Made by a program: the position numbers and the translations under genes
Notes under the pieces: model-generated
Seen by the model: only the letters and a program-made list of their open reading frames with translations
Database searches by the model: none
What the model was told of the DNA's origin: nothing
Source of the DNA: Vicinamibacteria bacterium
GTDB lineage: Bacteria; Acidobacteriota; Vicinamibacteria; Marinacidobacterales; Marinacidobacteraceae
Length of the DNA: 64,000 bases
Reading direction: 5' to 3'
NCBI GenBank assembly: GCA_964291235.2
Contig: OZ219816.1
Coordinates: 1,728,001-1,792,000, forward strand
Shown: positions 15,117 to 38,383 of the stretch, piece by piece
How the letters are laid out: each line of letters begins with the position of its first letter
How positions within the stretch are numbered: the first letter of the stretch is position 1

Positions 15117-15117
15117 C

Positions 15118-15660: not shown

Positions 15661-15700
15661 GACCGTGCATTGCCTCCGTTGAAGTGTTCCAGGACCGGCA

Positions 15701-17480: not shown

Positions 17481-17532
17481 AGGCCTTACCCAGCACTCGG
17501 ACAGAAGAAGTCCGCAAGAACAGCGACCCTAA

Positions 17533-17556
17533 GACCCCCGGTCAGAAGCCGGGGTC
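17533..17556. terminator. Hairpin downstream of precursor 1
   Basis: GACCCCCGG-TCAGAAG-CCGGGGTC inverted repeat; no long U tract. Confidence 0.45.
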
Positions 17557-17625
17557 ATTCCAAGCGCTGTGAGTGCGGTTCGGATCGCTCCGCATCTTCC
17601 CCGGCCAGTCGCCAGCTACCGAGGT

Positions 17626-18290: not shown

Positions 18291-18492
18291 AATCGGCAAG
18301 TTGCCTGGTAGGCACTCTGCCGCTATCGCATGCGCATCCTGTGGCCCCTCATCCCACCGCGCGTTGGCCTGGGGCCGCGTGCCGACGTGCAGGCCGGCGC
18401 CCTCCTTGCTCTGCTGGCCTCGTTCCAAGTTGCGACATCCCCCCGTTCGCCCCAGGCGTTCCAGACCGGAGGTCCTGCGCCACGCCACCCGG

Positions 18493-22140: not shown

Positions 22141-22218
22141 TGGCGCCTCTCCCGGGGAAGATCCGCGGGGATTATGTGGGCGGGGCGGGTGGGAAACTAG
22201 GCGGACACCAGACACCCC

Positions 22219-23274
22219 ATGGCACTCAAGATCGAGATCTGGGGCCCGCCGCTCGGACCGCTGACCGGCGGGAACCTCTACGACCGAATCCTGGCCGAGA
22301 CCCTCCGGGGCCAGGGCCACGAGGTGAGGGTGCGTGAGTTCGCCGGGGACGGGCAGGAGGCCCGAAAGGATGGAAGCTGGGCCGACGTGGTCCTGCAGGA
22401 CGAACTCCTGCACCGGGAGTTTCTTCACCGAAACACCGCCTGGAGGGGCCGCCGGCCGCGGATCATCGCGCTCGTCCACCACCCGATGAGTTCCGAGCCC
22501 GAGCGGGGCGAGGCGGAGCGCCGCCGGCTTCGGAAGGAGGAGCGCGCCTATCTGCGGACGGTGGACGCGGTGCTCGCCCCGAGCCGGGCCAGCGCCACGG
22601 CGGCGCGGCGGCTCGCCGGCAGACCGGTACCGTTCGCCGTCGCGCCGCCGGGACGGGACCGGCTGGCGGGGGCGGAACTGCCTCCCCTGCCCGGCCCCGA
22701 CGAGGTTCGCGCCCGGGCCGTCGGACCGCTCCGCGCCGCTTTCGTCGGGAACCTGATTCCCCGGAAGCGCCTTCTCGAACTCCTCGAGGCGGTCGCCGCC
22801 GTTCCCGAATGGACACTGGCGGTCGCCGGCCGGGAGGACATCGACCGGGAATACGCCACCCGCGCGCACCACCGGGCCAGCGCTTCCGATCTCCGGGGTC
22901 GGGTAACGTTCCACGGGGCGCTCGGCCCGGACCGTTTGGCGACGCTGCTTCGGGCAAGCTGCCTGCTCGCGGTGCCCTCGACCCACGAGGGGTTCGGCAT
23001 CGTCTATCTCGAGGGTTTTGCGTTTGGGTTGCCCGCTCTCGCCGCCGCCTCCGGGGGCGCGACGGAAATCGTGTCTGACGGAGAGACCGGCTGGCTGATC
23101 CGGGCGTCGGATTTCATCCGCGCCACCGAGCGGATCGCCGACTGCCTGCGACTCCTCGCCGCCGATCGCGACCAACTGACCACCATGGCGCTCCGGGCCG
23201 CAGACCGTCACCGCCGCCATCCCACCTGGCGGGAGAGCGCAACCGCGGCGGACCGGCTCCTCACGTTGCCGTAG
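22219..23274 (+). CDS. Glycosyltransferase family 4
   Basis: TGGNLYD, LVHHP, PRKR, PSTHEGFGIVYLEG. Confidence 0.9.
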   Translation: MALKIEIWGPPLGPLTGGNLYDRILAETLRGQGHEVRVREFAGDGQEARKDGSWADVVLQDELLHREFLHRNTAWRGRRPRIIALVHHPMSSEPERGEAERRRLRKEERAYLRTVDAVLAPSRASATAARRLAGRPVPFAVAPPGRDRLAGAELPPLPGPDEVRARAVGPLRAAFVGNLIPRKRLLELLEAVAAVPEWTLAVAGREDIDREYATRAHHRASASDLRGRVTFHGALGPDRLATLLRASCLLAVPSTHEGFGIVYLEGFAFGLPALAAASGGATEIVSDGETGWLIRASDFIRATERIADCLRLLAADRDQLTTMALRAADRHRRHPTWRESATAADRLLTLP

Positions 23275-23441: not shown

Positions 23442-23714
23442 ATGAATCCCGAAACGATCATGCAGAGTGCTGAGGACATGCGCCGGCGTCTCACCGAGAA
23501 GGCCGTGCAGGATCCCGAGTTCCGCGCGAGTCTCGTATCCGATCCGAAGGGCGTCCTTCAGGCCGAGTACGGCATCCAGTTGCCGGACGAGGTCAGCATC
23601 GAGGTACACGAATCCGACGACAACACCGTCCATTGGGCGCTGCCGTCTTCGGCGACACTGAGCGAGAAGCAGCTCGACCAGATCGCCGCCGGCCTCTGCT
23701 GCTGCGGAATCTGA
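23442..23714 (+). CDS. NHLP-leader RiPP precursor 2, core LCCCGI
   Basis: RBS AAGGAGG; KAVQDPEFRASLVSDPK...VHES...HWALP...EKQLDQIAAG; core LCCCGI*. Confidence 0.95.
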   Translation: MNPETIMQSAEDMRRRLTEKAVQDPEFRASLVSDPKGVLQAEYGIQLPDEVSIEVHESDDNTVHWALPSSATLSEKQLDQIAAGLCCCGI

Positions 23715-23864
23715 AGCAACCGGCCCCCAGGGCCGCTTCCGTCCTCGCGTCCGCAGACCGCTGACCTGAGTTCGGAGCGCCAGCGCGGCCCCTTGCGCCG
23801 CGTTCCGGCGGGCGCTCTGTAAGCACGGAGCGTCCGCTTTGGCGTTTCCCCCGCGTCGCCTTAT

Positions 23865-25001
23865 TCAGACAGGCTGCTGGCCGGGGGCGACCCCGCCCGC
23901 CGGCTGGGCGTAGCGAATCAGCCAGAAGACGTACGCCTTGACCTGCTCGACCCGCTCCGGGGTCAGCGCCACCTTGATGTGGTGGATACCTCGGATCAGC
24001 ACGTACATACCGGCCTTGCCGAACAGCGGTTCCAGACCACACGACGTTTCCTCGAGCGCCGACAGCTTCTCCGGAATGCCCAGGCCGTCCTGCCCGAGCC
24101 CGTCCAGCAGGGCCTTCCAGGGTTCGATGTCCTTCACCCACTCACCCTGACTGGGGAAAAAACTCAACCCGAGCGTTCGTCCCAGGCCGTCCGCCCGGAC
24201 GTCCAGATGCACGCCCAGAGTGCCGAACGCCTCGCGCCGCTCCATGCGACTCGCGACCGAAGCGACCAGATCCCGATTGCCAGCCCAGTCCGCACGTTCC
24301 AGGAACGCGAGGAGTTGGGAGGCGTTCGAGAACCCCGTTACGGCAAGGCGAACCGCCCGCGTGCGTGAAAGGAAGGCCCCGGCGCCCCGAATCGCGGCCT
24401 CCGGCGCCATCGCGGCGTACACCCGTTCGGCTTCGCGCCGTTCCGTCTCGTCGGGCTCCCAACCCAGCGCCGCGACCAGGGCGTCCATCACGACGCCGAG
24501 GTCTCGGCGCGCCGCTTCGGAACCGCCGCCGGCCAGGACGCCCTCCGCCGGATACAGGAAGACACCCGGGGCCGGCGCCACCTCCCCTGGCGTCCGGGGC
24601 ACGTCGTACTCGAGCAGCATCTTCCTGCCGATGATCCGCCGGAGCGCGGAGTCCGCCGGCCTCGTTCCGTCGAGCAGCCGGGCGATGGCCCGCGTGATCG
24701 GATCGGCGCCCGCGCGCCGCGCCTCGGCCGTGTAGTACTCCTCGGAAAGGCTGTCGCCGAGGAGCGACAGGCCGAGATCCGCCACTGGCCGGGGTTCGAG
24801 AAGCGGCAACTCGAACCCGAACGGAAAGGCGGCCAGCGTGACGGGGAGGCCCCGCACCCGTTCCCACGCCCGCCGCCACTCGGCCTCGCCGATCAGCAGC
24901 GGCGACAGCCGCCGCCCGAACGGCGCCAGCAGCGCTTCAAGGGAGGCAGCCTCGCGCGGCAACACCCTCTCGGTCGGGGGCCAGTCCTCCAGGAAACTCA
25001 T
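23865..25001 (-). CDS. Cluster-associated protein, putative ABBA/PT-barrel prenyltransferase-like
   Basis: Paralog of 5193..6305 (FPFGFELPL, RKMLLEYDV, RGIHHIK, VKAY), same position after YcaO. Confidence 0.55.
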   Translation of the reverse strand: MSFLEDWPPTERVLPREAASLEALLAPFGRRLSPLLIGEAEWRRAWERVRGLPVTLAAFPFGFELPLLEPRPVADLGLSLLGDSLSEEYYTAEARRAGADPITRAIARLLDGTRPADSALRRIIGRKMLLEYDVPRTPGEVAPAPGVFLYPAEGVLAGGGSEAARRDLGVVMDALVAALGWEPDETERREAERVYAAMAPEAAIRGAGAFLSRTRAVRLAVTGFSNASQLLAFLERADWAGNRDLVASVASRMERREAFGTLGVHLDVRADGLGRTLGLSFFPSQGEWVKDIEPWKALLDGLGQDGLGIPEKLSALEETSCGLEPLFGKAGMYVLIRGIHHIKVALTPERVEQVKAYVFWLIRYAQPAGGVAPGQQPV

Positions 25002-25019
25002 GAATTCGACCCCAACAGC

Positions 25020-27356
25020 CTAGGCAATCACGGGGGCCGGGTTGAGTTCGGATTCGGAGAGCGGGCTCGGGAGCCGCCCCATCGCGACCGGCACATCGAA
25101 CAGCCGGCCGGGCGCGAAACGTTCCCAGAAGTGCCGCATTCCCGGCACGATCACCCTTGCCACCGGCATTCCGATGTCGGGGCGGGTCTGGTCGAGGACC
25201 AGGAACTCCATCCCGCGGGTCTCCACCAGCGCCCGGCAGCGCTCGACGTCTTCGCGCACGTCCGTCGTGTCCGGGACGGGATAGTCGTCCCTGCCGCAGA
25301 GAGACGATTCCGGCGCCGGCGCCAGGTAGGGGTTTTCTTCCACCGTGGCCTCCTCCCACCAGCGAAGCGACATCGGATCCATGAGGTCGCGCCCAGCGCC
25401 GCCCCCCTCCACCGCCTGGATCCAGCTCAGGCACTGGTTCAACTCACACACCGCGCGGAGCACCGCCACCTGCGGATCGGGATGCGCCCCCGCACCGTAG
25501 AGGATGGTTTCCGCGTCCCCGCCGGTGCGCCGCGAAACCGCGACGAAGACCGGAATTCCCAGGTCGCTCGTAACGTCAAGCACCCACATTTCGCGTCCCC
25601 GCCGCCGGTAATAGTCGGGCGCGGAAACCAGGTACTCGTCGTCGAAGCTCCCCAGGTCCACGCCGGGCGCCGGGAGCCGGTTGTACCACCAGATCGCGAA
25701 GGCGTCGCGTTCGACCAGCTCCAGGAACCCCTGCAGGATGGCCTCCTCCAGGGTGTTCCCGGCGGCGCAGCCATTGGAATCGGCGACGGGTTCCCAAGCC
25801 TCGCGTTCCTCGGACGGCAGGCCGTACAACATGGACGTCGGCAGGTACCGGTGGCGGCTCTGGGTGAGCGACCACACCGGCGACCAGCTCGCTTCCCGCT
25901 CCGGATCGAAGCGGGGCGGGATCACGTTGTAGGGATGGCCCTGGGCGTTGATCCGATCTCGCTCGTCCAACTGCCGGTCGCTGAAGAGTTGGACGTCGTT
26001 CGGGTGGATCGCCTCGCCGCCGCCCGCCCGTTCGAAGTCGCGGTAACACTTCCGGACCCGGATCTCGTCCCCGTGGAACGCGCCCGAATACCGTTCGAGC
26101 GCTTCACAAAGCGCGCTCGCCTCGGACTGCGCGCGCGTCTCGCCCTTGCCCGCGCTCTTGCTGCGCAGGCTGCGGGTCAGCGAACTCAGCGTTTTCGTGC
26201 GGAGGGCCTGATTGCTGCCGGCCCAGTACACGTGAAGCCACGGGTCCGCTTCCTCCGACGTGCGTTTGACCCAGGTCACGACCCCGCTGACCGGGCTCAC
26301 CAGGTGACGGTAGCGGGCGAGGGTCGCCTCCGGGGCGACACCGCGCACCCCGCCGCTGTTGCGAATCCGCTTCGGGCTGGAAGCGAGCCGGACCGGGACG
26401 GCCGGCCGGTCGGTGCGATAGAGCGCCTCATCGCCGCAGGCAGCGCACTGGGGCCGGCGCCTGACCGGGTGACGCTCATTCTTCAAATGGGTGAGGTCCA
26501 GAGAAAACGCGTACTCGTGGAGCGGCGCCAGCTCCCCGAACACCAGCCACTTGGCTATTTCCGCCGCGGCGAAGCCCAGGACCGAATCCCGGACTCCGGG
26601 TTCCGCTGCGGCCGGGTGGAAGACGGAGTCCGCGTTGCGATTGCGCAGGAAATTGTGGACTTCCTGGTGCCCGCGCAGGCGGTGGGCGAGACAGCGCCAA
26701 CAGGGTCCCTGATCCGCCGGCCGGAAAATCGGCCCGAACAGCGGAGACATTCCGCGGGGGCGGAGCAGCATCCACGGAGTTCCCGACTCGAGCTGCCGCC
26801 GATTGAGGTCGGCGTGCTGCTCATCAAGATAGTCGGCGCAGACGACCACCGTAAGAACAACGCCGGCGGTGCCTGACGGGACGCCCATCCGCTCCAGGCG
26901 CCTCGCGAGTCCGCCTTCGTCACCGTGCACCCGGACCCCGGCGGCGCCGAGTCGCTGCTCCGCCCACCGGGGGGAGGCTCCCAGTGAGGACCAGTAGGCG
27001 GCGCGCTCCCGGGCCATGGCGTGTTCGCCCGAAACCACGTATCCCCTGGAGGCAAGCGCGACGAGCGCCTCGAAGACGTCGGAAGCCGCATGGACGCCGG
27101 CGAGCGCGGCGGCCAGTTCCTCACGCGAGCGGCGTCCGTCGAGCAACGGCAGGAGGTCGGCGTAGAGGGCGCCCCCGAGCAAGGTGTTGAAGGTTTCGGA
27201 AACCAGCAGCAGCTGTCCGCCCCCAACGGGACGGAACTCCAGGTGGGGCGCCAGCGCCGGCCTGTCCACGACGCCGGCGTCGGCAGCGGTGATCCTCTTC
27301 AGGATGCCGCGGCCCGGATTCGCCCGTGGGGCACCCTCCCGGTCCCAGTCCGACAT
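25020..27356 (-). CDS. Fused RRE/E1-like-YcaO cyclodehydratase, paralog 2
   Basis: PCWRCL, PQCAACG, SAGKG, SNGCAAG, ELVERDA, LNPAPVIA*. Confidence 0.93.
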   Translation of the reverse strand: MSDWDREGAPRANPGRGILKRITAADAGVVDRPALAPHLEFRPVGGGQLLLVSETFNTLLGGALYADLLPLLDGRRSREELAAALAGVHAASDVFEALVALASRGYVVSGEHAMARERAAYWSSLGASPRWAEQRLGAAGVRVHGDEGGLARRLERMGVPSGTAGVVLTVVVCADYLDEQHADLNRRQLESGTPWMLLRPRGMSPLFGPIFRPADQGPCWRCLAHRLRGHQEVHNFLRNRNADSVFHPAAAEPGVRDSVLGFAAAEIAKWLVFGELAPLHEYAFSLDLTHLKNERHPVRRRPQCAACGDEALYRTDRPAVPVRLASSPKRIRNSGGVRGVAPEATLARYRHLVSPVSGVVTWVKRTSEEADPWLHVYWAGSNQALRTKTLSSLTRSLRSKSAGKGETRAQSEASALCEALERYSGAFHGDEIRVRKCYRDFERAGGGEAIHPNDVQLFSDRQLDERDRINAQGHPYNVIPPRFDPEREASWSPVWSLTQSRHRYLPTSMLYGLPSEEREAWEPVADSNGCAAGNTLEEAILQGFLELVERDAFAIWWYNRLPAPGVDLGSFDDEYLVSAPDYYRRRGREMWVLDVTSDLGIPVFVAVSRRTGGDAETILYGAGAHPDPQVAVLRAVCELNQCLSWIQAVEGGGAGRDLMDPMSLRWWEEATVEENPYLAPAPESSLCGRDDYPVPDTTDVREDVERCRALVETRGMEFLVLDQTRPDIGMPVARVIVPGMRHFWERFAPGRLFDVPVAMGRLPSPLSESELNPAPVIA

Positions 27357-27378
27357 CCGAACGGCCTCCGGGTTGCGG

Positions 27379-28257
27379 TCAGCCGTCTTCCGGCTTCTTC
27401 GCACAGTAGCGCCGAAGCTCGAAGAAGCCCTTGGACCACACTTCGTGAAGCAGGCGCATGCGCTGGATCAGCCGGCCCAGCTCCGGGGTGTTCACGCCGG
27501 ACAGCCAGTACAGCGAGAGTTGCCGGTGCCGGTGCCCGATGAGCCGGATGTTCTCCGCATCCTTGCCGCCAAACCCCTCGAACTCGACCAGTTCGAAGCC
27601 GGCCCCGGCCAGCAGGCGGGTGTAGGTGGACTGGCGCTCAAGCGGAGACACCATCCACGGCTCGCAGAGCGGCAGGATGTGCTGCTCGTACTCCTCGCCG
27701 CTCAAATCGTCGCGAGCCATCCAGTCCATGGCCGCGATCCGGCCTCCCGGGGAGAGGATCCGGAACACCTCGCGAAGAAACGTTCCCCGGTCGCCGTAGT
27801 GGCAGGCGCTTTCGATATTCACTACGGCATCAATGGAGCCGTCGTCGAACGGAAGGTGTTCCGAGCAGTCGGCGTATCCAAAGCGCACCCGGTCTTCCAC
27901 GCCGGCATCCGCCGCCTTGCGGTTGGCGATCTCGAGTTGCTTCCGGTTCACGTTGACACCGGTAACGGCGCAGCCGTGTTTGTTCGCCAGGTAGATCGCG
28001 GTGCCCCCGACTCCACAGCCGGCGTCCACGACATGGTGGTCGGCTCCGATCCCGGCGGGGGCGGCAATCACATCCACCATCCGTTCCACCGCCCGCTGCA
28101 AACCGGCGGACTCGGCCAGCCGGTTCAGGTCCTCGGGAACGTCCTCCGGCTCGAAGAGCCCGAGATGAATGTGGTCGGGATTCCAGCTCGCGGCGTAACC
28201 CGCGGTGAGTTCGTCGTAGTGGAGCTCGACGAGGCGTGAGTGTTCCGAGAGCGCCAA
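27379..28257 (-). CDS. Class I SAM-dependent methyltransferase
   Basis: HLGLF, VVDAGCGVGG, IESACHY, RILSPGG; within the cluster 2 operon. Confidence 0.9.
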   Translation of the reverse strand: MALSEHSRLVELHYDELTAGYAASWNPDHIHLGLFEPEDVPEDLNRLAESAGLQRAVERMVDVIAAPAGIGADHHVVDAGCGVGGTAIYLANKHGCAVTGVNVNRKQLEIANRKAADAGVEDRVRFGYADCSEHLPFDDGSIDAVVNIESACHYGDRGTFLREVFRILSPGGRIAAMDWMARDDLSGEEYEQHILPLCEPWMVSPLERQSTYTRLLAGAGFELVEFEGFGGKDAENIRLIGHRHRQLSLYWLSGVNTPELGRLIQRMRLLHEVWSKGFFELRRYCAKKPEDG

Positions 28258-28328
28258 CTACCGGACTCCTCGTTTCCGGGCGGGGCGGCTGCGCGGCAAC
28301 GGGTCCGACCACTCCGGGGCGCGCACGA

Positions 28329-30821
28329 TTACGCGTGGCGATCCGTAGCAGCCGCCGCCCGGCTCCGTGACGCTTCACCAAGAGGGAAGGGTCCCGGCGC
28401 GGTCATGCCCTCGATCCCCCCGATGTCAGCCGCCACTCGCGCCGCCGTTTCACCAATGTGCCCGGTCAGCGCTTCGAAGTCCTTCGCCCCGCCGGCTTCC
28501 GCGACGACGGACCTGACCTCGGGCCTGACCTCGGGACGGGCCGATTCGGCCCCGAAGCCCTCGTCCGCGACCAGACGCAGGATGCCGCGCAGGTTGCGCA
28601 ACTGCGTCGCCGCTTCGGCCAGGCGCCCCGCGGCGGCCTCCGCGATCAGCCCGCGGGCGCCCGCGGCTTCGAAGACGGCCCCCGCGTCGAGGGACAGGAC
28701 CTCCGGCATTTTCCCGGCGCACTTCAGTTGCAGGAAGCGGGCGGCGCGCTCGACGTCGTGAAGACCGCCCGGCATGGCGTCGAGGGACGCCAGACCCGGT
28801 TCCGCCGCGCCATATGCGGCATGCGCCAACTGTGACATCAGGGTGTTGCGCGCGGGGCTGCGGGCCGCGATGTCCCGCCGCGCCGCTTCAAACCGCGCCG
28901 CAAGATCCGACCCGTCCGACTGGAAGACGCAGCGAGCGCGTATCAGTTCCAGGAGTTCGCCTTCCGGGCCGACATCCCGGTGGTAATCGAGGAAATCGGC
29001 GAACGACCTCACGGAGTGCGGCGTGGCTCCACGCGGAACCGGGGCGATCAGCAGGTTGTCGCGGGAGAGGCTGCGCAGCACTTTCCGGAAGCGGCGGCAG
29101 AGAGAGTCGTAGTACTCCGGAGGCCCGCCCTCGTACAGGAAAAGGAGGTCCAGTTCCGAGCCCAGGATCCTCTCCCGGCCGGCCACGTCTCCGAACGCGA
29201 CCACACAGATCCCGCTCCCGGGATCCGGAGAACTACTTTCCGCAAAGTCCTCGCAGACGGCGGACAACACGGCCGAGATCGACGCTTCGGCCACCCGGGA
29301 GGCCACCGCCCCCGCCTCGCTCGGGGTCAGGTTGCCGCGCATGGTGTGCACGCCGACCTGGAACGCCTTCGTGTTCGACCACTCGCGCGCCAGTCCCACC
29401 GCTTCCCCGGCGTTCTGAGCGGGGGTTTCCGCGATCTGTTCCTTCATCTCCTCCGCACCGAGTTCGCGCGTCCAGTAGAGGCGCACGAGTCCGCGGCGGG
29501 CGATCCTTTCGAATTCGGGATCAGGCCCGAACCCGCCCGGCAGGTCCAGATCGGTGAACTCCCTGGTGTCGAGGCTGTCCAGCAACTCCGGCGTCCGGTT
29601 TATCCAGGCGGCGAGCGGGGGCGAACCGCCGAGGATTTCCTGGATGGCGTCGAAGGCTGCCGGGCGGGCGGCGAACGCGTCGCTGTCGTACGCGCGCCAG
29701 TCCTTGACCTCGGGGTAGAAGTAGGCCCGCTGCTGATCCAGCAGGGGATCCATGAGCTTGAACCAGCGGCTCGGGAAGAGCGCCAGGTTGTTCATCTGCG
29801 AGTACCGGGCCGGTAGTTGCGGCGACTCTTCTCCGCCGTAGTGCTGCAGCACCGGGTAGCGCCGGTTGGACGCCGCATGGTGGTCGGCGTGCCGCTGCAT
29901 GTTGTAGTAGAGCCAGTTGGTGAACTTGTAGTCAGCGCTCCAGGCGTGCCGCGGGAGGACGCGCTCGAAGCGGCCGCTCGGCATCCGGATGCGCCTCAAT
30001 CCGTAGTGCTGGACGTAGTTGCTGACCTTCATCGAGAAGACCACGCTGAAGCACAAGACCGCGTAGATGAGAACGGCCCACGGCCCACCCAGAACGAAAA
30101 CCAGCGCATACCAGGCGCCGGTTTCCAGCACGTAGAGCCAGAAGGGATTGGAGTAGTGCCAGACCGGCAATCGGCTGCGCGCCAGTCGCTTTTTCTCGAA
30201 ACGCCAGGCCCCGGTCAGGTTACTCGCGATCTCCCGGGGCAGATACCGCCAAAAGCTCGTGCCCTTGGGGGCCGACCCGGGGTCCGCCGGAGTGCAGACC
30301 AGCGGATGATGGATGTAAACGTGCTCCGTCGCGTAGTGCGGATAGGACGCGGACGCCAGCACGAATTCCCCGAGCCGACGCTCCCACGTGGCGCGCCGGT
30401 GGACCAATTCGTGACCGACCACGAAAACCGTCTGGCCCACAAGGACCAGCACGAACGCCATCACCCCAATTTCCCATCCGGCGAGATGTCCGGACACCAG
30501 CATCTGCCAGAGTGAGAAGACGAAGGTCAGCGGCCAGATCATGGCCCACAGCCAGGCGGACAGCTTGTACACGAACAGGCGGCTCTCCGGAGTCCGGTCC
30601 GGGTCCATGTTCCGCTCCTGCTTGCCGAGCACCTGGTCGAACTGGTCGGCGATCGTGAGAAACAGGAAGGGACCCGCGAGCCACCAGCCGCCGTTCATCC
30701 CGGCAGCGATTACCAGCGGAAACACCAGCAGGGGCGCGAAATAGGGGAAGGCGTTCCCGAGGGAGGGTTCCACCCAGGCTGCACCGGCAGCCGCAACGGT
30801 GTTCGAACCTCCCGACGCCAT
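28329..30821 (-). CDS. AlkB/desaturase-type membrane di-iron oxygenase fused to a GlnE-like nucleotidyltransferase domain
   Basis: His boxes HELVH, EHVYIHH, NYVQHYG, QRHADHH; C-half FGDVAGRE...SELDLLFLY and PGGLHDVE; RBS AAGGAGG. Confidence 0.85.
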   Translation of the reverse strand: MASGGSNTVAAAGAAWVEPSLGNAFPYFAPLLVFPLVIAAGMNGGWWLAGPFLFLTIADQFDQVLGKQERNMDPDRTPESRLFVYKLSAWLWAMIWPLTFVFSLWQMLVSGHLAGWEIGVMAFVLVLVGQTVFVVGHELVHRRATWERRLGEFVLASASYPHYATEHVYIHHPLVCTPADPGSAPKGTSFWRYLPREIASNLTGAWRFEKKRLARSRLPVWHYSNPFWLYVLETGAWYALVFVLGGPWAVLIYAVLCFSVVFSMKVSNYVQHYGLRRIRMPSGRFERVLPRHAWSADYKFTNWLYYNMQRHADHHAASNRRYPVLQHYGGEESPQLPARYSQMNNLALFPSRWFKLMDPLLDQQRAYFYPEVKDWRAYDSDAFAARPAAFDAIQEILGGSPPLAAWINRTPELLDSLDTREFTDLDLPGGFGPDPEFERIARRGLVRLYWTRELGAEEMKEQIAETPAQNAGEAVGLAREWSNTKAFQVGVHTMRGNLTPSEAGAVASRVAEASISAVLSAVCEDFAESSSPDPGSGICVVAFGDVAGRERILGSELDLLFLYEGGPPEYYDSLCRRFRKVLRSLSRDNLLIAPVPRGATPHSVRSFADFLDYHRDVGPEGELLELIRARCVFQSDGSDLAARFEAARRDIAARSPARNTLMSQLAHAAYGAAEPGLASLDAMPGGLHDVERAARFLQLKCAGKMPEVLSLDAGAVFEAAGARGLIAEAAAGRLAEAATQLRNLRGILRLVADEGFGAESARPEVRPEVRSVVAEAGGAKDFEALTGHIGETAARVAADIGGIEGMTAPGPFPLGEASRSRAAAATDRHA

Positions 30822-30888
30822 CGTTACCTCCTTAAGGTCGCCTGATTCGGATCAGTCTGATCGTAGCACTTCGCCGGCCGCCGAACTT

Positions 30889-33813
30889 TCACGCCAACTG
30901 CCGGCGAACCAGGTCCTGGAACGGCCCCTCGGTTGCCACGAGGACCGCATAGGACCCCTCCTGAACGACCTTCCCGGCGCGCATCACGTAGATGCGGTCC
31001 GCTTCGCGGAGGGTGGACAGCCGGTGGGCGATGACGATCCGCGTCGAGGTGAGACGCGCGAGGTTGTCCATGACCGTCGCCTGCGAGTCGTTGTCGAGCC
31101 AGTTGGTTGCTTCGTCGAGAAGGAGGATTCGCGGATTGCCGATCAGCGCGTGCGCGATCGTGATGCGCTGGCTTTCGCCGCCGGAGGTGACGCTCCCGCC
31201 GGCCCCGACGGGGGTCAGCATCCCCATGGGCATCGCCGCGATCTCGCGGTCCACCGCCGCGATCCGGGCGGCCCGCCAGGCATCCTCGGCGGTGGCTTCT
31301 TCGTGGTCTCCCGCGATGTTGTCCCAAAGGTCCTGCGGATGGAGTTGGACCTGCTGGGGAACGGTGCCGAGCTTCCGGCGCACCTGCTTGACGTTGAGAT
31401 GCCGGAGATCGCGTCCGTCGTAGTACACCGCTCCCGACGACGGCTGGTCCAGGCCGAGCGCCAGGCGAAAGAGCGTGCTCTTGCCGGCGCCGGACTCGCC
31501 GGCGATCGCCACGAACTCGCCGGCGCGAGCGCGAATGGATACATCGTCCAGAATCGCCGGGCCGTCCTCGTCGTAACGGAAACTCACGTGGTCGAACGCG
31601 ATCTCGCCGCCCAGAACTTCTACGGCTTCCCCACCCGCGCTCATCTCCGGGGGCTCGGCCAGGAACGGCTCGACACGCTGGAGCGCCGGCAAGATGCCGG
31701 CAAGCGCGCTGAATGATGTCCCGAGACGCACTACCGACATCTGGAACAGCAGGAGCAGGGTGTAAACGACGAGAAAATCTCCCACCGCGATCGGCCCGCG
31801 GTCCGGGAGAGTCGCGCCGAGCAGGAGGAGCGCCGCCGCGAGCAGCGGCAGCGCGGCGCAGAACGCCTTCAGATGGGCCTCGAGGGAGCCGAGTTCCAGT
31901 TCGGCCTTCTTCTGGTCCCGGTAGTCGCGAGCCCACATCGCGAACGCCGACCCCTCGGCGCCGTCCACCCGCAGCTTCGAGATGCCTCCCACCAGTTGGA
32001 ACAAACGGCCGGCCAGCCGGCCGATCGCATCCGTCACCCGGCGCTGGGGCGACATCTGGCCGAGGCCGAGGGCCACCGTAGCCCCGAGCGAGACGAGGGC
32101 AAAGACAGCCGCCAGGCCGCCCAGCACCGCGTCATAAACGACAATGAGGAGGAGCGCCGGGGCCAGGAACACCAGCGACAGGACAGCGCCCCCGACCACC
32201 CCCTGGACGGCGTCGCGGAGAAGCTGGAACGTTGTCCCGCGCATCGCGAGATCCCCGGCCGAGTAGCGATGCAGGACGCTCGGGGGCAGGCGCAGCAACC
32301 GGTCCCAGAAGGCGGCTTCGATCCGTGAGGCCGCGCGGCCCTCCAGACGCATCAAGGCCATTCCCCGAAGGACATAGAGGAGGGACCCGACCAGGCCGAC
32401 TGCCGCGAGCGCCGCGGTGGCGAGATACAACAAGCCGACCTCGCCCGCCGGAATCACCGCATCCGCGATGAACCCGAGGACCACCGCCGGCAGCAGCATG
32501 ACCAGCCCGCCGAGGAGCCCGGCGAACAGGAAGCGCAGGAAATCGGCCCTCAGCCCGCTCCGGGCGAGGCGGAACAGATCCTTGAGGCCCACGCTGTCCG
32601 AAGTCAGGGGCTGATAGAAGAGCCAGGCCCGGTCGCGGAGCGATTGCGCGGTCTCCGCGGTGACCCGGATGGTGCGCCCGGAGACGGGGTCCACCTGGCG
32701 ATACGGGCCGTAGACGCCCGGCAACAACACGACGGGCCTCCCGTCCTCCTTGCGAAAGGCCAGCAGCGCGCCGCTGTCACCGAACCACCATCGGTCTTCG
32801 GAAGCGAGCCGTATACGCCGGCTGCGGACGCCCGATGCATCAAGGACCTGACCCAGGAGCGTGGCGGGGTCCCCTTCCTCCCGCTCCACGGGGAACCGGA
32901 ACGGGATTCCCGTTTGCCGGCCGATGACCCGGAGCGCCTCGAAAAGTTCCGTCGCCTGGGCTTCCTGGCCCTTTTCGGATTCCGGGCGGTACAGATCGAA
33001 GAGTTCGCGCCGGGCGCGCTCCTCGTCGATGCGGCGGTTCGTTGCCCGCACGCGCTCCAGATTGGCCTGGTCCACAACCGCCAGGCTGCGGTTGAGCCGT
33101 TCCACCGCGAAGGCCACGGCCTGGAAGCGCGCCAGTGCGGGCCACAGCAGCCCCTCGCTGGCGAGCGCCCAGGAGGAGCGGCCGGTGACCTCCACCGCGT
33201 CCAGCAGCGTGAGCCAGCTGTCGGGCGTTAGTGGGATCGCGGTGGGTGTTTCTCCGGTTTCCCGACCCGCGGCGGGATCGACCAGGCTCAGGAAAAGCGT
33301 CGCGCCCGGCGGCGGCGCGGAGACCCACACGGGCCCCCGCCGGCTCGACAAGGTGCCGCTCTGCGCCGGCGCGGTCCGTCCGGGTTCGACGAGGACGTCC
33401 GGACGCGGCCGCCCGATGACGTCGCGGGACAGCATGGCCGAAATCTCCTGGAGCCAGGCGTCGGCCTGCTCCGCCAGTTCCGCGGGGCGGACGGACGACA
33501 GGCTGGCGACCGGAAGACGTCGCACCAGCGTTCCCTGCACGCCCTTCGCAACCAGCGCGAGGGTCGTTTCGCCGGCGTCGGACAAAACCCCGGGAAGCAA
33601 CCGGCCGGCGTCCGCCCGCAGCAGGTGCTGCGGCGCCGACTGCTCCTCGCCGTCCTTCCTTTCGACCAGGAACACGTCCACGGCGCCGCTCTCGATGAAC
33701 CAGGCGGATTCGGGATCGGCCATGTCGAGCGGCAGGTTGCCCGCAGAGGCGATCTCCACCCCGAACTCCCCCGCCACTTCGGCGAGCGGGCGTCGCTTCG
33801 GCTTCACGGTCAA
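30889..33813 (-). CDS. NHLP export ABC transporter permease/ATPase, paralog 2
   Basis: GESGAGKST, SGGESQR, LLDEATNWLD; colinear with 9967..12906. Confidence 0.92.
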   Translation of the reverse strand: MTVKPKRRPLAEVAGEFGVEIASAGNLPLDMADPESAWFIESGAVDVFLVERKDGEEQSAPQHLLRADAGRLLPGVLSDAGETTLALVAKGVQGTLVRRLPVASLSSVRPAELAEQADAWLQEISAMLSRDVIGRPRPDVLVEPGRTAPAQSGTLSSRRGPVWVSAPPPGATLFLSLVDPAAGRETGETPTAIPLTPDSWLTLLDAVEVTGRSSWALASEGLLWPALARFQAVAFAVERLNRSLAVVDQANLERVRATNRRIDEERARRELFDLYRPESEKGQEAQATELFEALRVIGRQTGIPFRFPVEREEGDPATLLGQVLDASGVRSRRIRLASEDRWWFGDSGALLAFRKEDGRPVVLLPGVYGPYRQVDPVSGRTIRVTAETAQSLRDRAWLFYQPLTSDSVGLKDLFRLARSGLRADFLRFLFAGLLGGLVMLLPAVVLGFIADAVIPAGEVGLLYLATAALAAVGLVGSLLYVLRGMALMRLEGRAASRIEAAFWDRLLRLPPSVLHRYSAGDLAMRGTTFQLLRDAVQGVVGGAVLSLVFLAPALLLIVVYDAVLGGLAAVFALVSLGATVALGLGQMSPQRRVTDAIGRLAGRLFQLVGGISKLRVDGAEGSAFAMWARDYRDQKKAELELGSLEAHLKAFCAALPLLAAALLLLGATLPDRGPIAVGDFLVVYTLLLLFQMSVVRLGTSFSALAGILPALQRVEPFLAEPPEMSAGGEAVEVLGGEIAFDHVSFRYDEDGPAILDDVSIRARAGEFVAIAGESGAGKSTLFRLALGLDQPSSGAVYYDGRDLRHLNVKQVRRKLGTVPQQVQLHPQDLWDNIAGDHEEATAEDAWRAARIAAVDREIAAMPMGMLTPVGAGGSVTSGGESQRITIAHALIGNPRILLLDEATNWLDNDSQATVMDNLARLTSTRIVIAHRLSTLREADRIYVMRAGKVVQEGSYAVLVATEGPFQDLVRRQLA

Positions 33814-33824
33814 AACCCCTGCCG

Positions 33825-36047
33825 CTACCCGGCGCGGACGAGCCTGGCGTAGGCCCCTTGCTCGTCCGCCATCAGATCGTCATGGGTGCCCCGCTGCAGT
33901 TCCACACCCTTCTCCAGCACGATGATCTCGTCGCAATCGCGCACCGTGCTCAGTCGGTGAGCCACGATCAGGCAACTGATTCCCCGGCGCCTCAGCGCGT
34001 CATCCACGTACTCCTCGGTGGCGGCGTCAAGAGCGCTCGTCGCTTCGTCCAGAATGAGGATCGTCGGGTTGCCGACCAACGCGCGGGCGATTTCCAGGCG
34101 CTGCCGCTGGCCACCACTGAAATTGCCGCCGTTTTCGTCAACGGCGGTCCCGTAGCCGAGCGGCCGGCTGAGGATCTCGTCGTGGATGAAAGCGTCCCGG
34201 GCCGCGGCCACCACGTCGTCATCAGGAACGGCGGCGCTCCAGAGCGTGAGGTTTTCGCGCACGGTCGCGGAGAAGAGCACGACTTCCTGGTCCACCATCG
34301 AAAGGGACCGGGACAGCACCCCTTCGGGAATCTCGTGGCGGGGACGGCCATCGAAGAGGATCTCGCCGGACCAGGGCTGGTAAATGCCCGCGACCAGGCG
34401 CGACACCGTGGACTTGCCGGACCCGCTGTGTCCAACCACGGCAACGCGCTGTCCCGGCTTGATGACCAGGTTGAGGTCCTTGATCAGCGGCGGCCGGCCC
34501 TGGGTGTAGCCGAACGTCACTCCGCGCAGTTCCACCTCGCCGGCCAGCCGGAGCCGCCCGTTGAGGGTGGCGATGCCCCCGGACTCCTCGCCCCGCCGGG
34601 TCAGGACCGGGTCTTCCGGGGCTTCGGCGATGTCGTCCAACCGGCGCATGTCCGTCTCCAGCGCCTGACGCTCGTGAGCGAGCTCGATGAAGCGCCCGAC
34701 CGGATCGAGGAAAAGAGCCGCGAGGAGATAGAACGCCACCAATGCTCCGAGCGTCATCTCGCCGGCCATGACCCGGGTGGCGCCCACGGTCAGTACCGCG
34801 GCGTTACTCAGGACCAGGAACAGGCCCGGAAGGGCGGCGCCGAGATGACTGATCTCGGCAAACCGCTGTCGGGCCACCAGTTCCCGGGCCTGATGACCGC
34901 TCCAGCGGGCGAACGCGCTGTCCTCCGCCGCGGTCATCCGCAGGGTGTCCATCTGATTCAGCATCAGCGTGCCGACCCCGAGCAACAGCCCCTGCTCCCG
35001 GCGCATCGAGTGACTCTCGTCGGTCCGCAGCCGGGTAATCAGATGCACGATCGCCCCGTTGAGCACCCCGAGGCCGAACACGATGAGCGCCAGCACGGGA
35101 TCGAAAACGAGCATCAGAACGAGCGCCGCCCCGCTCATCGCGATTTCGATCAGCACGCCGACCAGGTGGTCCGATACGCCTCGGGCGATCTTGTCGATGG
35201 AGAAAATGCGGGCCGTCAGATCGCCGACCAGGCGGTGAGCGAAGAACTGCACGGGCAGCCGCAGCAGCCGGGAGACCAGGCGATTGCCGGCGACGACGGA
35301 AACACGGACGGCGAGCCGCCGCAGCCAACGCTCCTTCAGCCAGGTCAGTCCGTAAACCAGGGCGGCAGCTCCCGCCAGCGCTCCGGCCAGAATGGCGCCC
35401 CACGGCTCCTGCTGTCCGAGCACCCGGTCCACGAAGACGCCCAGGGCGACCGGCGCCACGAGAGCCAGCACGGCCAGAATCAGCCCGCTGGCAACGGCAT
35501 AGCCCAGGCCGCTTCCCGCGCCGCGCAACCACGCCGGGAGGCGGTCGCGGAGACCGAGCCGGCCTCCCCCGGGCCGGAAATCGGGGCCGGGCTTGAACTG
35601 CAGGACGATCCCCGAAAATCCCTCCTTGAACTCTCGGATGGTCAGTTTCCGCCGGCCGGTGGCCGGGTCGTTGAGGAAAAAATGGCCGGAGTCAAACCCC
35701 TCGAGGATCAGGAAGTGATTGAACTCCCAAAAGAGGATCAGGGGCAGCCGCAGCTTCCTGAGTTGCGCCGTGCTGACCTGCAGACCGGTGCACTCGAGGC
35801 CATAGTGCCGGGCGGCCCGGGAGATGCCCCCGGCCGTTGAACCGTCCCGACTGACCCCGCATCGCTGCCGCAACTCGATGAAAGGCACCCAGCGCCCGAA
35901 ATGGCCGAGCACGCTGCCGAGGCAGGCGGCGCCACACTCCGTCGCGTGCATCTGCAGCAGCAGCGGCGTGGTGACCCGCTGCCGGTCGCGGGAACCGGAG
36001 TTCTCGCTGCCTCTCTTCGCTCGGGCGTTCGGCGGAGACGCGGACAT
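33825..36047 (-). CDS. NHLP export ABC transporter with C39 peptidase, paralog 2
   Basis: QMHATECGAACL, NHFL, LNDP; GHSGSGKST, FSGGQRQR. Confidence 0.94.
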   Translation of the reverse strand: MSASPPNARAKRGSENSGSRDRQRVTTPLLLQMHATECGAACLGSVLGHFGRWVPFIELRQRCGVSRDGSTAGGISRAARHYGLECTGLQVSTAQLRKLRLPLILFWEFNHFLILEGFDSGHFFLNDPATGRRKLTIREFKEGFSGIVLQFKPGPDFRPGGGRLGLRDRLPAWLRGAGSGLGYAVASGLILAVLALVAPVALGVFVDRVLGQQEPWGAILAGALAGAAALVYGLTWLKERWLRRLAVRVSVVAGNRLVSRLLRLPVQFFAHRLVGDLTARIFSIDKIARGVSDHLVGVLIEIAMSGAALVLMLVFDPVLALIVFGLGVLNGAIVHLITRLRTDESHSMRREQGLLLGVGTLMLNQMDTLRMTAAEDSAFARWSGHQARELVARQRFAEISHLGAALPGLFLVLSNAAVLTVGATRVMAGEMTLGALVAFYLLAALFLDPVGRFIELAHERQALETDMRRLDDIAEAPEDPVLTRRGEESGGIATLNGRLRLAGEVELRGVTFGYTQGRPPLIKDLNLVIKPGQRVAVVGHSGSGKSTVSRLVAGIYQPWSGEILFDGRPRHEIPEGVLSRSLSMVDQEVVLFSATVRENLTLWSAAVPDDDVVAAARDAFIHDEILSRPLGYGTAVDENGGNFSGGQRQRLEIARALVGNPTILILDEATSALDAATEEYVDDALRRRGISCLIVAHRLSTVRDCDEIIVLEKGVELQRGTHDDLMADEQGAYARLVRAG

Positions 36048-36117
36048 CGGGGGTCGGTGGCGGACTTTGGACTACGCCAACTGGCGGCGCACCAAGTCTC
36101 CCGCTGGAGGGCCGCCG

Positions 36118-36202
36118 CCGTGGAGAAAGCGCCCCGCATTTGGAAACCCGTCGAGCGCGCTCGTTCGGGCGGCAAACAGAATGCGGGGCGCCTTCTCCAC
36201 GG
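36118..36202. repeat. 23-bp inverted repeat with 39-nt spacer
   Basis: CCGTGGAGAAAGCGCCCCGCATT (36118-36140) / AATGCGGGGCGCCTTCTCCACGG (36180-36202), one mismatch. Confidence 0.85.
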
Positions 36203-36209
36203 GATGAGA

Positions 36210-37097
36210 TCAGTAGCGTCCGAGACCCAGGACCGCGACGGGAGGCTCGCGGCCCAGCAGGATACGGACGCGGCATGGCGTCCCGTCCGGGACGGAGAGA
36301 TCCGCAGCGTCCTCCAGGTCCACGTCCACCCGATACCGGGACTCGGAGACCGCGGGCGGGAACTCCGCCAGCCACTCCGGCAGCGGTCCGGGAGTCACCG
36401 AAGCCACCTCTCCATCCCACACCCGTGTCGTCCCGTCGGGCATTTCGATGTCAACCGAGGCGCGCATTCCGGACCGAATGCGTTCCGCGGTCTGCGAAGC
36501 GACGCGCAGGACCGCCCGCAGGGGTCCATCTTCCGCGGCGCGAAGCTGCGCAACGGCAACTCCCACCGGCAGGTAGTCGCCCGCCGCGGACCGGAGCGCC
36601 ATCACGTCGCCGCCCATTTGGGCGACGATGACCGCTCTCGCGGAACGCCGAGCCTCCATCTCGAGGAGCGCCGTGCTGGCCGTATCGAGGACGGAGCGGA
36701 CCCCGGCGCCGCCTCCCGCGCGTTGGATTTCGGTCTGGAGCAACTCGACCCGTTCACGCAGCGCCTCGGTTTCACGGTCCAGCTCCGGTGTCGTCTGGCG
36801 GGCAATGGGGTCTCCGGCCTCGACCCGGGCCCCCGGATCCACCAACACCTCCACCAAGTGGCCTGGTTCGGTCGCCATCACCTCGTGGCGATCTCCGGGC
36901 TCGATCAAAACCCCGTCCAGCGTCAGACCGAGGGTGATGTTCCCGAAGAACCCCCAGACCGCGAGCCCCACCAGGACCAGGCCGATTCCCGCAAGCAGCA
37001 GGCGCTCGTGCGGCGCCGTGACCCGAAGGAGGTGGTCGAGTTGCTGGCGCTGGTCTTTGCTGGCGAGGGCCTTCTCGATAAAACCTTTCCTGAACAC
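36210..37097 (-). CDS. HlyD-family NHLP secretion protein
   Basis: QLDHLLRVTAPHE + TM, lipoyl half motifs (GARVEAGDPIA), helical hairpin. Confidence 0.9.
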   Translation of the reverse strand: MFRKGFIEKALASKDQRQQLDHLLRVTAPHERLLLAGIGLVLVGLAVWGFFGNITLGLTLDGVLIEPGDRHEVMATEPGHLVEVLVDPGARVEAGDPIARQTTPELDRETEALRERVELLQTEIQRAGGGAGVRSVLDTASTALLEMEARRSARAVIVAQMGGDVMALRSAAGDYLPVGVAVAQLRAAEDGPLRAVLRVASQTAERIRSGMRASVDIEMPDGTTRVWDGEVASVTPGPLPEWLAEFPPAVSESRYRVDVDLEDAADLSVPDGTPCRVRILLGREPPVAVLGLGRY

Positions 37098-37159: not shown

Positions 37160-38125
37160 TTACGCCCTGGCGCCAGCCGGAACGCGCCGCCCGGGGAACA
37201 TCAGCCAGGCGAAGAAGACAGCCGCGAGAGCTTCCGAACCCGTAGCCAGGCCCGCCAGTTTCGCCGCCACGAGCGCGGCGGTGAGCACCGCGGCGACCGC
37301 GCTCGCGGGAGCCCGAAGACGCTGGAGCGCGGAGACGAACTGCTGCGATTTCGGGCGCTCGGGATCGAGCCGCCGCGAGGCGATGAGGTAGTCGCGACCG
37401 AAGCCGATCAGGAAGGGGATTCCGAGGGCCGCCGTCGCGGGCGGCGCCCACTCGGGCTCGATGAAGGGCGCGAGACAGACCGCGACCAGGCCCATCTGGA
37501 AGCCGGCGAGGCGGCGCCGAAACGGGCTCGGGGGCAGCTTGCCCATCCGGCGGCCGAACCGTTCCTCCACAAACAAGGCGGCGCCGAACAGGTACCGCCC
37601 AAACCCGGCGAGGAGGTACCAGGCGGGCAATGTTCCGGTGGCGAACACCGCGATGCCACTCGCCGCCGCCAGGCCCAGGGCGTCGGCCTCAGCGTCGAGC
37701 CGGGCTCCGAACGCGCTTTCAGAACCGGTGCGGCGGGCGACGGCCCCATCGGCATAGTCGCAAAGAGCCGCCACGGCATAGAGGAGGCACGGGAGCCACC
37801 CGGCGAGCAACAGCCGGGCTTCGAGGGAGTTCGTCGCCGCAAATCCGGTCCCCGCGAGGACCGCCAGTACTGCGAGACGGAGGAGAGTCAGCCGGTTCGC
37901 CGGCCCCAGGGGACTTGGGGGGGATTCCCGGGCCGCGTAGCGCACCACGGCGAAAAAGGCAGCGAGCCCGACCAACCCTCCGGCGAGCGGGAGGCCGGTA
38001 AGCAGGACCGCAAGACCGAACACCGCTCCCCCGGCGAGGGCCGAGAACCGTCCCAGTTCGCGTCCGCTGGCGTTGGCGGAGGGAGACCTCGAGTCGTTCA
38101 GGTCAGGAACCGAAGGCGCAATCAA
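37160..38125 (-). CDS. CDP-alcohol phosphatidyltransferase family protein
   Basis: ANRLTLLR and DYADGAVARR...FGARLDAEAD signature; start uncertain. Confidence 0.9.
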   Translation of the reverse strand: MIAPSVPDLNDSRSPSANASGRELGRFSALAGGAVFGLAVLLTGLPLAGGLVGLAAFFAVVRYAARESPPSPLGPANRLTLLRLAVLAVLAGTGFAATNSLEARLLLAGWLPCLLYAVAALCDYADGAVARRTGSESAFGARLDAEADALGLAAASGIAVFATGTLPAWYLLAGFGRYLFGAALFVEERFGRRMGKLPPSPFRRRLAGFQMGLVAVCLAPFIEPEWAPPATAALGIPFLIGFGRDYLIASRRLDPERPKSQQFVSALQRLRAPASAVAAVLTAALVAAKLAGLATGSEALAAVFFAWLMFPGRRVPAGARA

Positions 38126-38383
38126 CAGCCTGTGGAAGAAGTCACGCGTAGTCCAGCCCGGTGTTCACTACCGGCCGTAAGCCGTCACCCGCCGGCCACC
38201 GCTCGCGATTCGTCCGTCCCAAGCGCATTCGCATACCCCCAAGTAGCGCTGTCCAGACAACCGCTCCTACCTTACACCGCCCGCGAGGCGCCGTGCCGAA
38301 GCCGACACGGCCGGAAGCAGCGGAGCCCCGTTTCGGACATACTCTGGCGAGCTAGCGCTGTTGCAAGGGGAGGTGACCGCGTC

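Follow-up and report, generated by a model that had tools for sequence, protein, structure and literature searches.

The window analysed here is a 64,000-nucleotide stretch of DNA (G+C content about 68%) from a Vicinamibacteria bacterium (contig OZ219816.1, positions 1,728,001 to 1,792,000), and all positions below are counted from its first letter. It contains two clusters of genes for peptides that are made by ribosomes and modified after translation (RiPPs). One of them, called cluster 2 here, had been presented in an initial annotation, made from the letters alone, as a candidate for an undescribed RiPP at 23442-37097 with the core peptide LCCCGI. The other, cluster 1, is a canonical cluster of the srp (sponge-derived RiPP proteusin) family. 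Cluster 2 is a variant of this known, still cryptic family and not a new class, and we regard it, with a probability of about 0.72, as an intact, non-halogenating paralogous variant of srp. Its genes are listed below together with two genes outside those coordinates, MT2, which probably belongs to the cluster, and a flavin adenine dinucleotide (FAD)-linked oxidase, which possibly does.

23442-23714, plus strand: precursor peptide, 90 aa, whose NHLP (proteusin-type) leader ends in an ...IAAG cleavage motif, followed by the core LCCCGI
23865-25001, minus strand: protein of 378 aa with a predicted ABBA (PT-barrel) prenyltransferase fold, assigned from its AlphaFold2 (AF2) model; a sequence orphan
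25020-27404, minus strand: fused winged helix-turn-helix (wHTH)/E1-like and YcaO cyclodehydratase, 794 aa, from Pfam and NCBIfam matches; SrpC-like, PatD-like architecture
27379-28257, minus strand: MT1, class I S-adenosylmethionine (SAM) methyltransferase, 292 aa, from Pfam
28329-30821, minus strand: AlkB-GlnE fusion, 830 aa, from Pfam (FA_desaturase and GlnE) and profile matches in the PDB
30889-33813, minus strand: ABC2, NHLP-system exporter permease/ATPase, 974 aa (TIGR03797, E 1.7e-202)
33825-36047, minus strand: ABC1, NHLP-system exporter with an N-terminal C39 leader peptidase, 740 aa (TIGR03796; Peptidase_C39, E 1.3e-31)
36210-37097, minus strand: HlyD-type membrane-fusion adaptor, short, 295 aa (HlyD_3)
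18493-19362, minus strand: MT2, second class I methyltransferase, 289 aa (Pfam Methyltransf_11, E 4.9e-23)
19359-20690, minus strand: FAD-linked oxidase of the VAO/PCMH type, 443 aa (FAD_binding_4, E 1.6e-28, and a cytokinin-dehydrogenase-like C-terminus)

The components that had been named for cluster 2, namely the precursor, YcaO, a methyltransferase, a di-iron fusion, a putative prenyltransferase and the exporter, are all found intact within 23442-37097. No frameshifts are seen, in agreement with the earlier view: all ten genes of cluster 2 are open, their lengths are typical of their relatives, and the G+C content at third codon positions (GC3) is 0.80-0.85 across them. The extent of the cluster had been drawn too narrowly, as MT2 and the FAD-linked oxidase at 18493-20690 were missed. 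A promoter/terminator scan around the precursor gave 0 sites, and Rfam at its gathering thresholds gave 0 matches in 17000-39000.

The precursor gene has a Shine-Dalgarno sequence, AAGGAGG, 6 nt before its ATG, and its product ends in ...QIAAGLCCCGI. The leader is of the proteusin (NHLP) type, matching TIGR03793 with 66.9 bits against a cut-off of 50.9 (E 1e-18) and PF02979 with 34.2 bits against 27.2. The junction with the core is that of srp precursors, an A-G cleavage motif followed by Leu and three contiguous Cys. In an alignment with 39 related precursors, C87 and C88 never vary, while at least 90% of the rows have C86; all 16 invariant positions of the family are present in the cluster 2 precursor, which is itself included in the alignment. 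The C-terminal Trp of srp and its SrpI-type brominase are missing, in that the core ends with Gly-Ile and no halogenase is encoded in cluster 2.

The cyclodehydratase matches PF02624 (E 1.4e-98), TIGR03604 (267 bits, cut-off 219) and TIGR03882 (138 bits, cut-off 36.9). These models, together with 61% identity to the YcaO of the LCCCW cluster in the window, identify it as a fused E1-like/YcaO protein of the SrpC type, the comparison being with the cluster 1 protein. As reported in two papers, SrpC turns the three Cys of the SrpE core LCCCW into thiazolines (PMC10286304, PMC10858898). No domain of a SagB/McbC-type flavin mononucleotide (FMN) dehydrogenase was found in any open reading frame (ORF) scanned between 18301 and 38125, and azolines, not azoles, are therefore expected. 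The two methyltransferases are 32-36% identical to each other. The export system is of the NHLP type, comprising a peptidase-ABC protein, a second ABC protein and an HlyD adaptor: ABC1 scores above the TIGR03796 cut-off (864.6 vs 853.3 bits), ABC2 just under that of TIGR03797 (674.6 vs 709.4) and the HlyD-like adaptor under that of TIGR03794 (81.9 vs 156.2). The exporter can be called complete, as had been proposed, since the short adaptor of 295 aa is the norm of the family, with ORFs of 292-346 aa in 15 relatives aligned over their whole length.

Cluster 1 lies at 5193-17877 on the minus strand, 6 kb from cluster 2. In addition to ABC1, ABC2 and an ABBA paralogue of 370 aa, which is 38% identical to the 378-aa protein, it contains the following genes.

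17629-17877, minus strand: precursor ending in ...SAGLCCCW, of the NHLP type, located by a six-frame search for CCC
15701-16975, minus strand: Trp halogenase, the only Trp_halogenase gene of the two clusters
about 15124-15636, minus strand: short HlyD-like gene
8660-9970, minus strand: protein of 436 aa with an NHLP-leader-like N-terminus (TIGR03793, 46.8 bits, below the cut-off)
6315 to about 8678, minus strand: YcaO, the protein compared above

The C-terminal part of the 436-aa protein has a weak match to squalene-cyclase repeats, and its ORF runs into the cluster 1 YcaO ORF at the latter's over-called 5′ end. Cluster 1 has no AlkB-GlnE gene of its own.

The 378-aa protein, which lies directly downstream of the YcaO gene both in cluster 2 and in the fetched loci examined, has no match in Pfam or NCBIfam, the prenyltransferase families Trp_DMAT and PTase_Orf2 included. 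Likewise, no prenyltransferase is among the matches of a profile search against the PDB, and no Pfam prenyltransferase match was obtained for any of 38 distant relatives (38/38 without one). A language-model search gave a weak lead to a Trp_DMAT cluster (score 0.90, with a low recognition value). The structure prediction is more informative. The AF2 model, computed from a 38-sequence alignment, has a predicted local distance difference test score (pLDDT) of 93.7 and a predicted template modelling score (pTM) of 0.90, and is built of repeated helix-strand-strand-helix units, as in the ten-strand antiparallel barrel of the ABBA fold. Searched against the PDB with Foldseek, it gave 82 matches at E<=1e-3; those listed are all aromatic prenyltransferases and include EpzP, NphB/Orf2, TleC, LimF, PagF, KgpF and DMATS. 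VIA-align superimposes it on MpnD with Z 17.3 (root-mean-square deviation 4.4, 305 residues) and on CymD, FgaPT2 and FtmPT1 with Z 15-17; 133 chains reach Z>=8, and all 50 listed are prenyltransferases. On this model the protein is assigned the ABBA fold, in line with the initial guess that this unannotated protein is a prenyltransferase, and prenyl transfer is the activity that the predicted fold suggests.

Ten residues (E64, D75, E131, D133, R213, R218, K312, H341, K343 and Y357) are near-invariant in the ABBA family down to 24% identity and lie mostly on predicted strands. Such conserved acidic, basic and Tyr residues are as would be expected of an active site that binds a diphosphate and a metal or base. 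The family numbers 1980 representatives at E<=1e-3. Among 111 word-indexed homologues a Pfam domain is found in none except one fragment, and the few that are named are each a "hypothetical protein" of metagenome-assembled genomes (MAGs) of Acidobacteria or Gammaproteobacteria. Close homologues, 79-85% identical, occur in other assemblies.

In the 830-aa fusion, an AlkB part occupies about residues 50-370 and a GlnE-like nucleotidyltransferase part about residues 460-790. A profile of 21 fusion sequences matches alkane 1-monooxygenases (8f6t, E 5.9e-67, profile positions 51-369; 8sbb, 4.6e-55) and GlnE adenylyltransferase domains (3k7d, 1.2e-20, profile positions 462-754; 1v4a, 2.5e-7). AlkB uses nine His ligands. 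The AlkB part carries histidine motifs of the AlkB type (HExxH, EHxxxHH, NYxxHYG and RHxDHH), here HELVHR, EHVYIHH, NYVQHYGL and QRHADHH, and H137, H141, H167, H171, H172, H272, H311, H314 and H315 are invariant in all 21 rows of the fusion alignment. In the nucleotidyltransferase part, an acidic pair of the form E/D-x-D is kept in 17 of the 21 rows, that of the window protein among them. The AF2 model of the whole fusion has a pLDDT of only 68.2. The fusion family comprises at least 879 clusters, annotated at the source as "fatty acid desaturase" or "alkane 1-monooxygenase". In most fetched loci examined the fusion gene lies directly upstream of the YcaO/ABBA genes. A sample of 400 further genomes from the phylum yielded no full-length fusion; nine of them have stand-alone AlkB-like genes. 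The genome itself has one AlkB-GlnE copy and two ABBA/YcaO sets; since cluster 1 has no copy of its own, it may depend on the single one encoded by cluster 2.

A scan of one genome per species yielded 414 ABBA relatives, from which 80 loci were kept. With the whole gene set duplicated within the window and this number of ABBA relatives, it is more than a chance assembly. MAGs account for nearly all of the loci; they belong to Pseudomonadota, Nitrospirota, Acidobacteriota, Binatota, Thermodesulfobacteriota and Verrucomicrobiota, and several bear sponge or sponge-symbiont names. Gene counts come from local tblastn searches of the 80 loci with proteins of the window and of the loci, within flanks of at most 10 kb and up to contig ends. 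Precursors were sought by regular expression, and 74 were found in 70 of the 80 loci. Their cores are LCCCW (28), xCCCGx (15), RCCC (14), LSCCx (8), LCCCL/V/T or LCCC (7) and other (1); the xCCCGx cores read LCCCGI (3), LCCCGV (3), LCCCGL (2), LCCCGF (1), MCCCGI (2) and WCCCGN/Q/T (4). The exact core LCCCGI recurs in three loci (L015, L022 and L039) from three phyla, the MAGs being one alphaproteobacterial, one of Nitrospirales and one of Thermodesulfobacteriota. Two loci with both LCCCW and xCCCGx precursors and ten in which no precursor was found are kept apart from the classes in the following counts of loci.

AlkB-type domain: LCCCW 19/26, RCCC 14/14, xCCCGx 9/12, LSCCx 6/8, LCCC(x) 6/7
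Halogenase: xCCCW 19/26, xCCCGx 0/12, RCCC 0/14, LSCCx 0/8, LCCC(x) 0/7
NHLP-fused protein of about 430 aa: xCCCW 23/26, xCCCGx 0/12
LolA-like protein: xCCCW 16/26
MT1: xCCCW 0/26, xCCCGx 11/12, RCCC 5/14, LSCCx 1/8, LCCC(x) 0/7
MT2: xCCCW 0/26, xCCCGx 10/12, RCCC 6/14, LSCCx 7/8, LCCC(x) 5/7
FAD oxidase: xCCCW 0/26, xCCCGx 6/12, RCCC 0/14, LSCCx 1/8, LCCC(x) 2/7
MMPL-type transporter: xCCCW 6/26, xCCCGx 11/12
Amine oxidase: RCCC 13/14

The brominase accompanies the C-terminal Trp, and the two methyltransferases and the FAD oxidase accompany the xCCCGx cores. The prenyltransferase-like protein and the di-iron fusion had been singled out as special "slot" enzymes of cluster 2, a view that does not survive this comparison: the ABBA gene is present in 80 of the 80 loci (by construction) and the AlkB-type domain in 61, across all classes, while YcaO is found in 70. 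Because they are class-specific, unlike the ABBA protein and the AlkB fusion, it is MT1, MT2 and the oxidase that distinguish cluster 2. The MMPL and LolA-like genes of the relatives fit a lipid-like product. The RCCC loci (L003-L007, L011, L012, L016, L017 and others) have a set of their own, in which the amine oxidase is a flavin enzyme and an MpaB-like oxygenase occurs in 8 of 14; one of them, L004, has a second ABBA paralogue.

A quick IQ-TREE run on 76 ABBA proteins gave a tree on which the core-class labels change 14 times against a mean of 45.9 after shuffling, a clustering that relatedness of the whole clusters alone could produce. The cluster 1 ABBA protein falls inside the LCCCW clade (support 99).

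The locus nearest to cluster 2 is L001, from a MAG of Candidatus Marinacidobacterium sp., and the leader variant EKQL(E/D)QIA is common to both precursors. L001 looks degraded: its adaptor has 95 aa, no ABC genes were found in it, and only the C-terminal part of the fusion is detectable. It is also the only one of the 80 loci in which three of the genes flanking cluster 2 are kept. The flanking genes are as follows.

about 20728-22110, minus strand: lipoprotein amidohydrolase, about 460 aa, with a lipoprotein signal (...LFGSLAC...)
22219-23274, plus strand: GT4 glycosyltransferase, 351 aa (Glycos_transf_1, E 4.3e-27), on the strand of the precursor gene and 168 nt upstream of it
37160-38125, minus strand: CDP-alcohol phosphatidyltransferase, directly upstream of the adaptor gene
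38132-41569, plus strand: TonB-dependent receptor with a carboxypeptidase-regulatory domain, divergent

The GT4, amidohydrolase and CDP-alcohol transferase genes are those kept in L001 only, and are probably lineage-specific neighbours; membership of GT4 in cluster 2 is doubtful. The amidohydrolase of L001 is 87% identical to that of the window. Two further ORFs of this region were rejected. A minus-strand ORF of 830 aa at 20728-23220 is over-called, its first ~370 residues being antisense to the GT4 gene, and the plus-strand ORF at 18301-19482 is an antisense shadow of MT2 (GC3 0.72 vs 0.85).

An outline of the process that cluster 2 may encode is as follows. The fused YcaO enzyme would receive the structured NHLP leader of the 90-aa precursor on its wHTH/E1-like part and, with ATP, would convert the three contiguous core Cys to thiazolines, by analogy with SrpC on LCCCW. 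The Leu-(thiazoline)3-Gly-Ile scaffold proposed at the outset was a fair deduction on this analogy, as the SrpC homologue acts on a core that follows the same A-G motif. MT1 and MT2 would methylate the product, as their co-occurrence with the core class suggests, and the C-terminal Gly-X extension, with which the VAO-type FAD oxidase co-occurs, may be the site where that oxidase acts. Fold, homology and tight linkage suggest that the ABBA-fold enzyme could put an isoprenoid onto the peptide and that the AlkB domain could hydroxylate an aliphatic carbon of the isoprenoid tail or of a side chain; the GlnE-like domain may then nucleotidylylate the new hydroxyl. Finally, the C39 domain of ABC1 would cut after ...AAG, and ABC1, ABC2 and the HlyD-like adaptor would export the product. 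Cyclodehydration, A-G cleavage and export are the steps predicted from homology to characterised enzymes. The product is likely to be a leader-cleaved, methylated Leu-(thiazoline)3-Gly-Ile, or a form of it processed at the C-terminus, and is perhaps lipidated.

This scheme can be extended to the whole srp superfamily, cluster 2 included, which would then make small lipidated polythiazolines and not plain azoline peptides: ABBA enzymes would prenylate a non-aromatic acceptor, AlkB-GlnE would hydroxylate and nucleotidylylate, and the enzymes of the Gly-X class would remodel the thiazolines or the Gly-X end. We offer this as a speculation with a small chance of being right. If true, the nucleotidylylated hydroxyl would be activated for elimination or ring closure, and in the Gly-X class C-methylation might occur, as might an oxidative cleavage at Gly that leaves an amide. 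It would amount to a ribosomal route to methylated polythiazolines resembling tantazole and thiangazole in structure.

Several observations weigh against reading cluster 2 as a working srp variant with the pathway outlined above. The core LCCCGI has no aromatic residue, the usual acceptor of ABBA/DMATS enzymes; a free N-terminus would not be available in the cytoplasm either, as the leader presumably stays on until export. Rubredoxin (PF00301), the usual electron donor of AlkB, was not found in the 3.45-Mb, 90.3%-complete genome, while the same search gave matches in 7 of 14 control genomes. The MMPL and LolA-like genes of the relatives were not found in the window. The amidohydrolase and GT4 genes, with their restricted distribution, lie between the precursor and the MT2/oxidase pair. 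Seven sequencing runs are listed with this stretch, four of them with at least half of its words, and none is recorded as RNA. The cluster 2 ABBA protein sits on a long branch of 0.78 and groups with L001 (core LCCCL, Acidobacteriota; support 97), not with the other xCCCGx proteins. More than one event of origin or exchange thus lies behind the Gly-X ending; the Gly-X class does not form a single lineage, and the enzyme associations seen in it may transfer less cleanly to cluster 2. In three WCCCGN/T loci (L026, L029 and L034) YcaO is missing from the 10-kb flanks; a second cluster elsewhere may serve them, as is suggested by another locus, L028, which has both an LCCCW and a WCCCGQ precursor. 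These three loci contain the ABBA gene, MT1, MT2, the MMPL transporter, the precursor and the ABC genes, and have no AlkB-GlnE within 10 kb.

A rival reading is that the peptide is only cyclodehydrated, perhaps methylated, and exported, and that the substrate of the ABBA protein and AlkB-GlnE is a membrane lipid or isoprenoid, serving for example self-protection or as a lipid carrier or co-metabolite. AlkB enzymes act on alkyl chains; stand-alone AlkB homologues, free of the fusion, occur in 9 of the 400 other genomes of the phylum; the aromatic prenyl acceptor is missing from LCCCGI; and MMPL and LolA-like genes go with the family, as a CDP-alcohol phosphatidyltransferase gene does with cluster 2. 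That transferase, however, is the one kept in 1/80 loci, and the position of the ABBA gene next to YcaO, with the fusion directly upstream in most loci, speaks against this reading. ABBA lineages also follow the core class across phyla, even if whole-cluster relatedness could suffice for this. We consider this reading unlikely.

Two other explanations find still less favour. Cluster 2 might be a redundant or decaying paralogue that makes no product of its own and is kept mainly to supply AlkB-GlnE to cluster 1; the single copy of this gene beside two ABBA/YcaO sets, the visible degradation of the nearest relative and the long branch of the cluster 2 ABBA protein all speak for this. Ten open genes of family-typical length and uniform GC3, a precursor that keeps every invariant position of an alignment including it, and ABBA homologues at 79-85% identity in other assemblies are hardly the marks of decay, and we judge it very unlikely. 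Most improbable is the view that cluster 2 represents a separate RiPP class, whose core and set of enzymes bear no relation to any that have been described. The initial claim that core and enzymes are uncharacterised stands in so far as no description of LCCCGI or of this enzyme set was found in the searchable literature, where the motifs LCCCG, CCCGI and RCCC gave only unrelated matches, and the ABBA-fold protein indeed has no Pfam or NCBIfam model. The claim fails as to novelty of the system: the leader, the LCCC motif, YcaO, the ABBA protein, AlkB-GlnE and the exporter are common to published srp or "LCCC-motif" clusters, and homology and synteny with the related genes of the LCCCW cluster in the same window contradict a separate class.

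With cluster 2 read as a non-halogenating srp variant, a canonical cluster and a non-brominated one adjoin in one small genome. Two genes that have been unannotated or mis-annotated, those of the prenyltransferase-fold protein and the AlkB-GlnE fusion, appear to belong to the core of the family, and the C-terminal residue or residues of the core peptide predict the accompanying tailoring genes. There may be new acceptor chemistry for ABBA enzymes here, and a new pairing of a hydroxylase with a nucleotidyltransferase. The 20-kb stretch, with two precursors, two YcaOs and one shared AlkB-GlnE, is a compact test bed in which to look for the mature products.

Among known systems, the cyanobactin pathways provide one comparison. 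They include heterocyclases of the PatD/TruD type and F-family ABBA prenyltransferases such as PagF, LimF and AgeMTPT (aeruginosamide). Cluster 2 resembles them in combining a fused E1-YcaO heterocyclase, here predicted to form thiazolines in a short core, with an ABBA-fold gene and a methyltransferase, and differs from them in having an NHLP leader, no PatA/PatG proteases and no macrocyclisation. By fold, its ABBA protein is nearer to the DMATS-type indole prenyltransferases (Z 15-17) than to Orf2-type chains (Z about 14), a ranking in which no cyanobactin F-type chain is among the VIA-align rows listed; in sequence it has no detectable similarity to enzymes of either the DMATS or the Orf2 type. 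The fusion resembles AlkB (8f6t, 8sbb) and GlnE (3k7d, 1v4a) in its profile matches and its nine invariant His; unlike them, it unites both in one 830-aa protein, has no rubredoxin domain and is encoded in a RiPP cluster. A myxobacterial, thiangazole-like pathway independent of non-ribosomal peptide synthetases was also considered and rejected; the literature on thiangazole biosynthetic gene clusters gave nothing relevant, and no paper was found on NHLP with YcaO in myxobacteria.

The closest system is srp itself. Its founding description is said to be that of Nguyen et al. in JACS in 2021. According to later work, thiazoline formation on LCCCW cores has been shown for SrpC and MprC/D (PMC10286304), and SrpI brominates the C-terminal Trp of the LCCCW core (PMC10858898, PMC10286304). 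A preprint reports that few RiPP clusters in sponge microbiomes are as widespread as srp and that, across phyla, srp precursors rank with the most highly transcribed genes there (bioRxiv 10.1101/2023.06.09.544420). In the accessible parts of the srp literature the cyclodehydratase and the brominase alone are studied and no final product is described; the portion of the supplement text of PMC10858898 that was available does not mention the other srp genes. Like srp, cluster 2 has an NHLP leader, an A-G/LCCC junction, a fused E1/YcaO enzyme and an NHLP-type exporter with two ABC proteins, with ABBA-fold and AlkB-GlnE genes as neighbours, and it belongs to a set of loci occurring in MAGs of many phyla. 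Unlike srp, its core ends with Gly-Ile instead of Trp; it has no Trp halogenase, 436-aa NHLP-fused protein or LolA-like gene, and it has two methyltransferases and an FAD oxidase, as well as an adaptor of the longer type (295 aa vs about 185 aa). Families of srp-like gene clusters were reported earlier (PMC9426513). Neither in the accessible text of that paper nor in that of a study of mesophotic sponge MAGs (PMC11832590) is a function given for the unknown genes, or the xCCCGx class and its enzyme associations named. The "LCCC-motif" proteusin families of the latter study (PMC11832590), as far as its available text describes them, match cluster 2.

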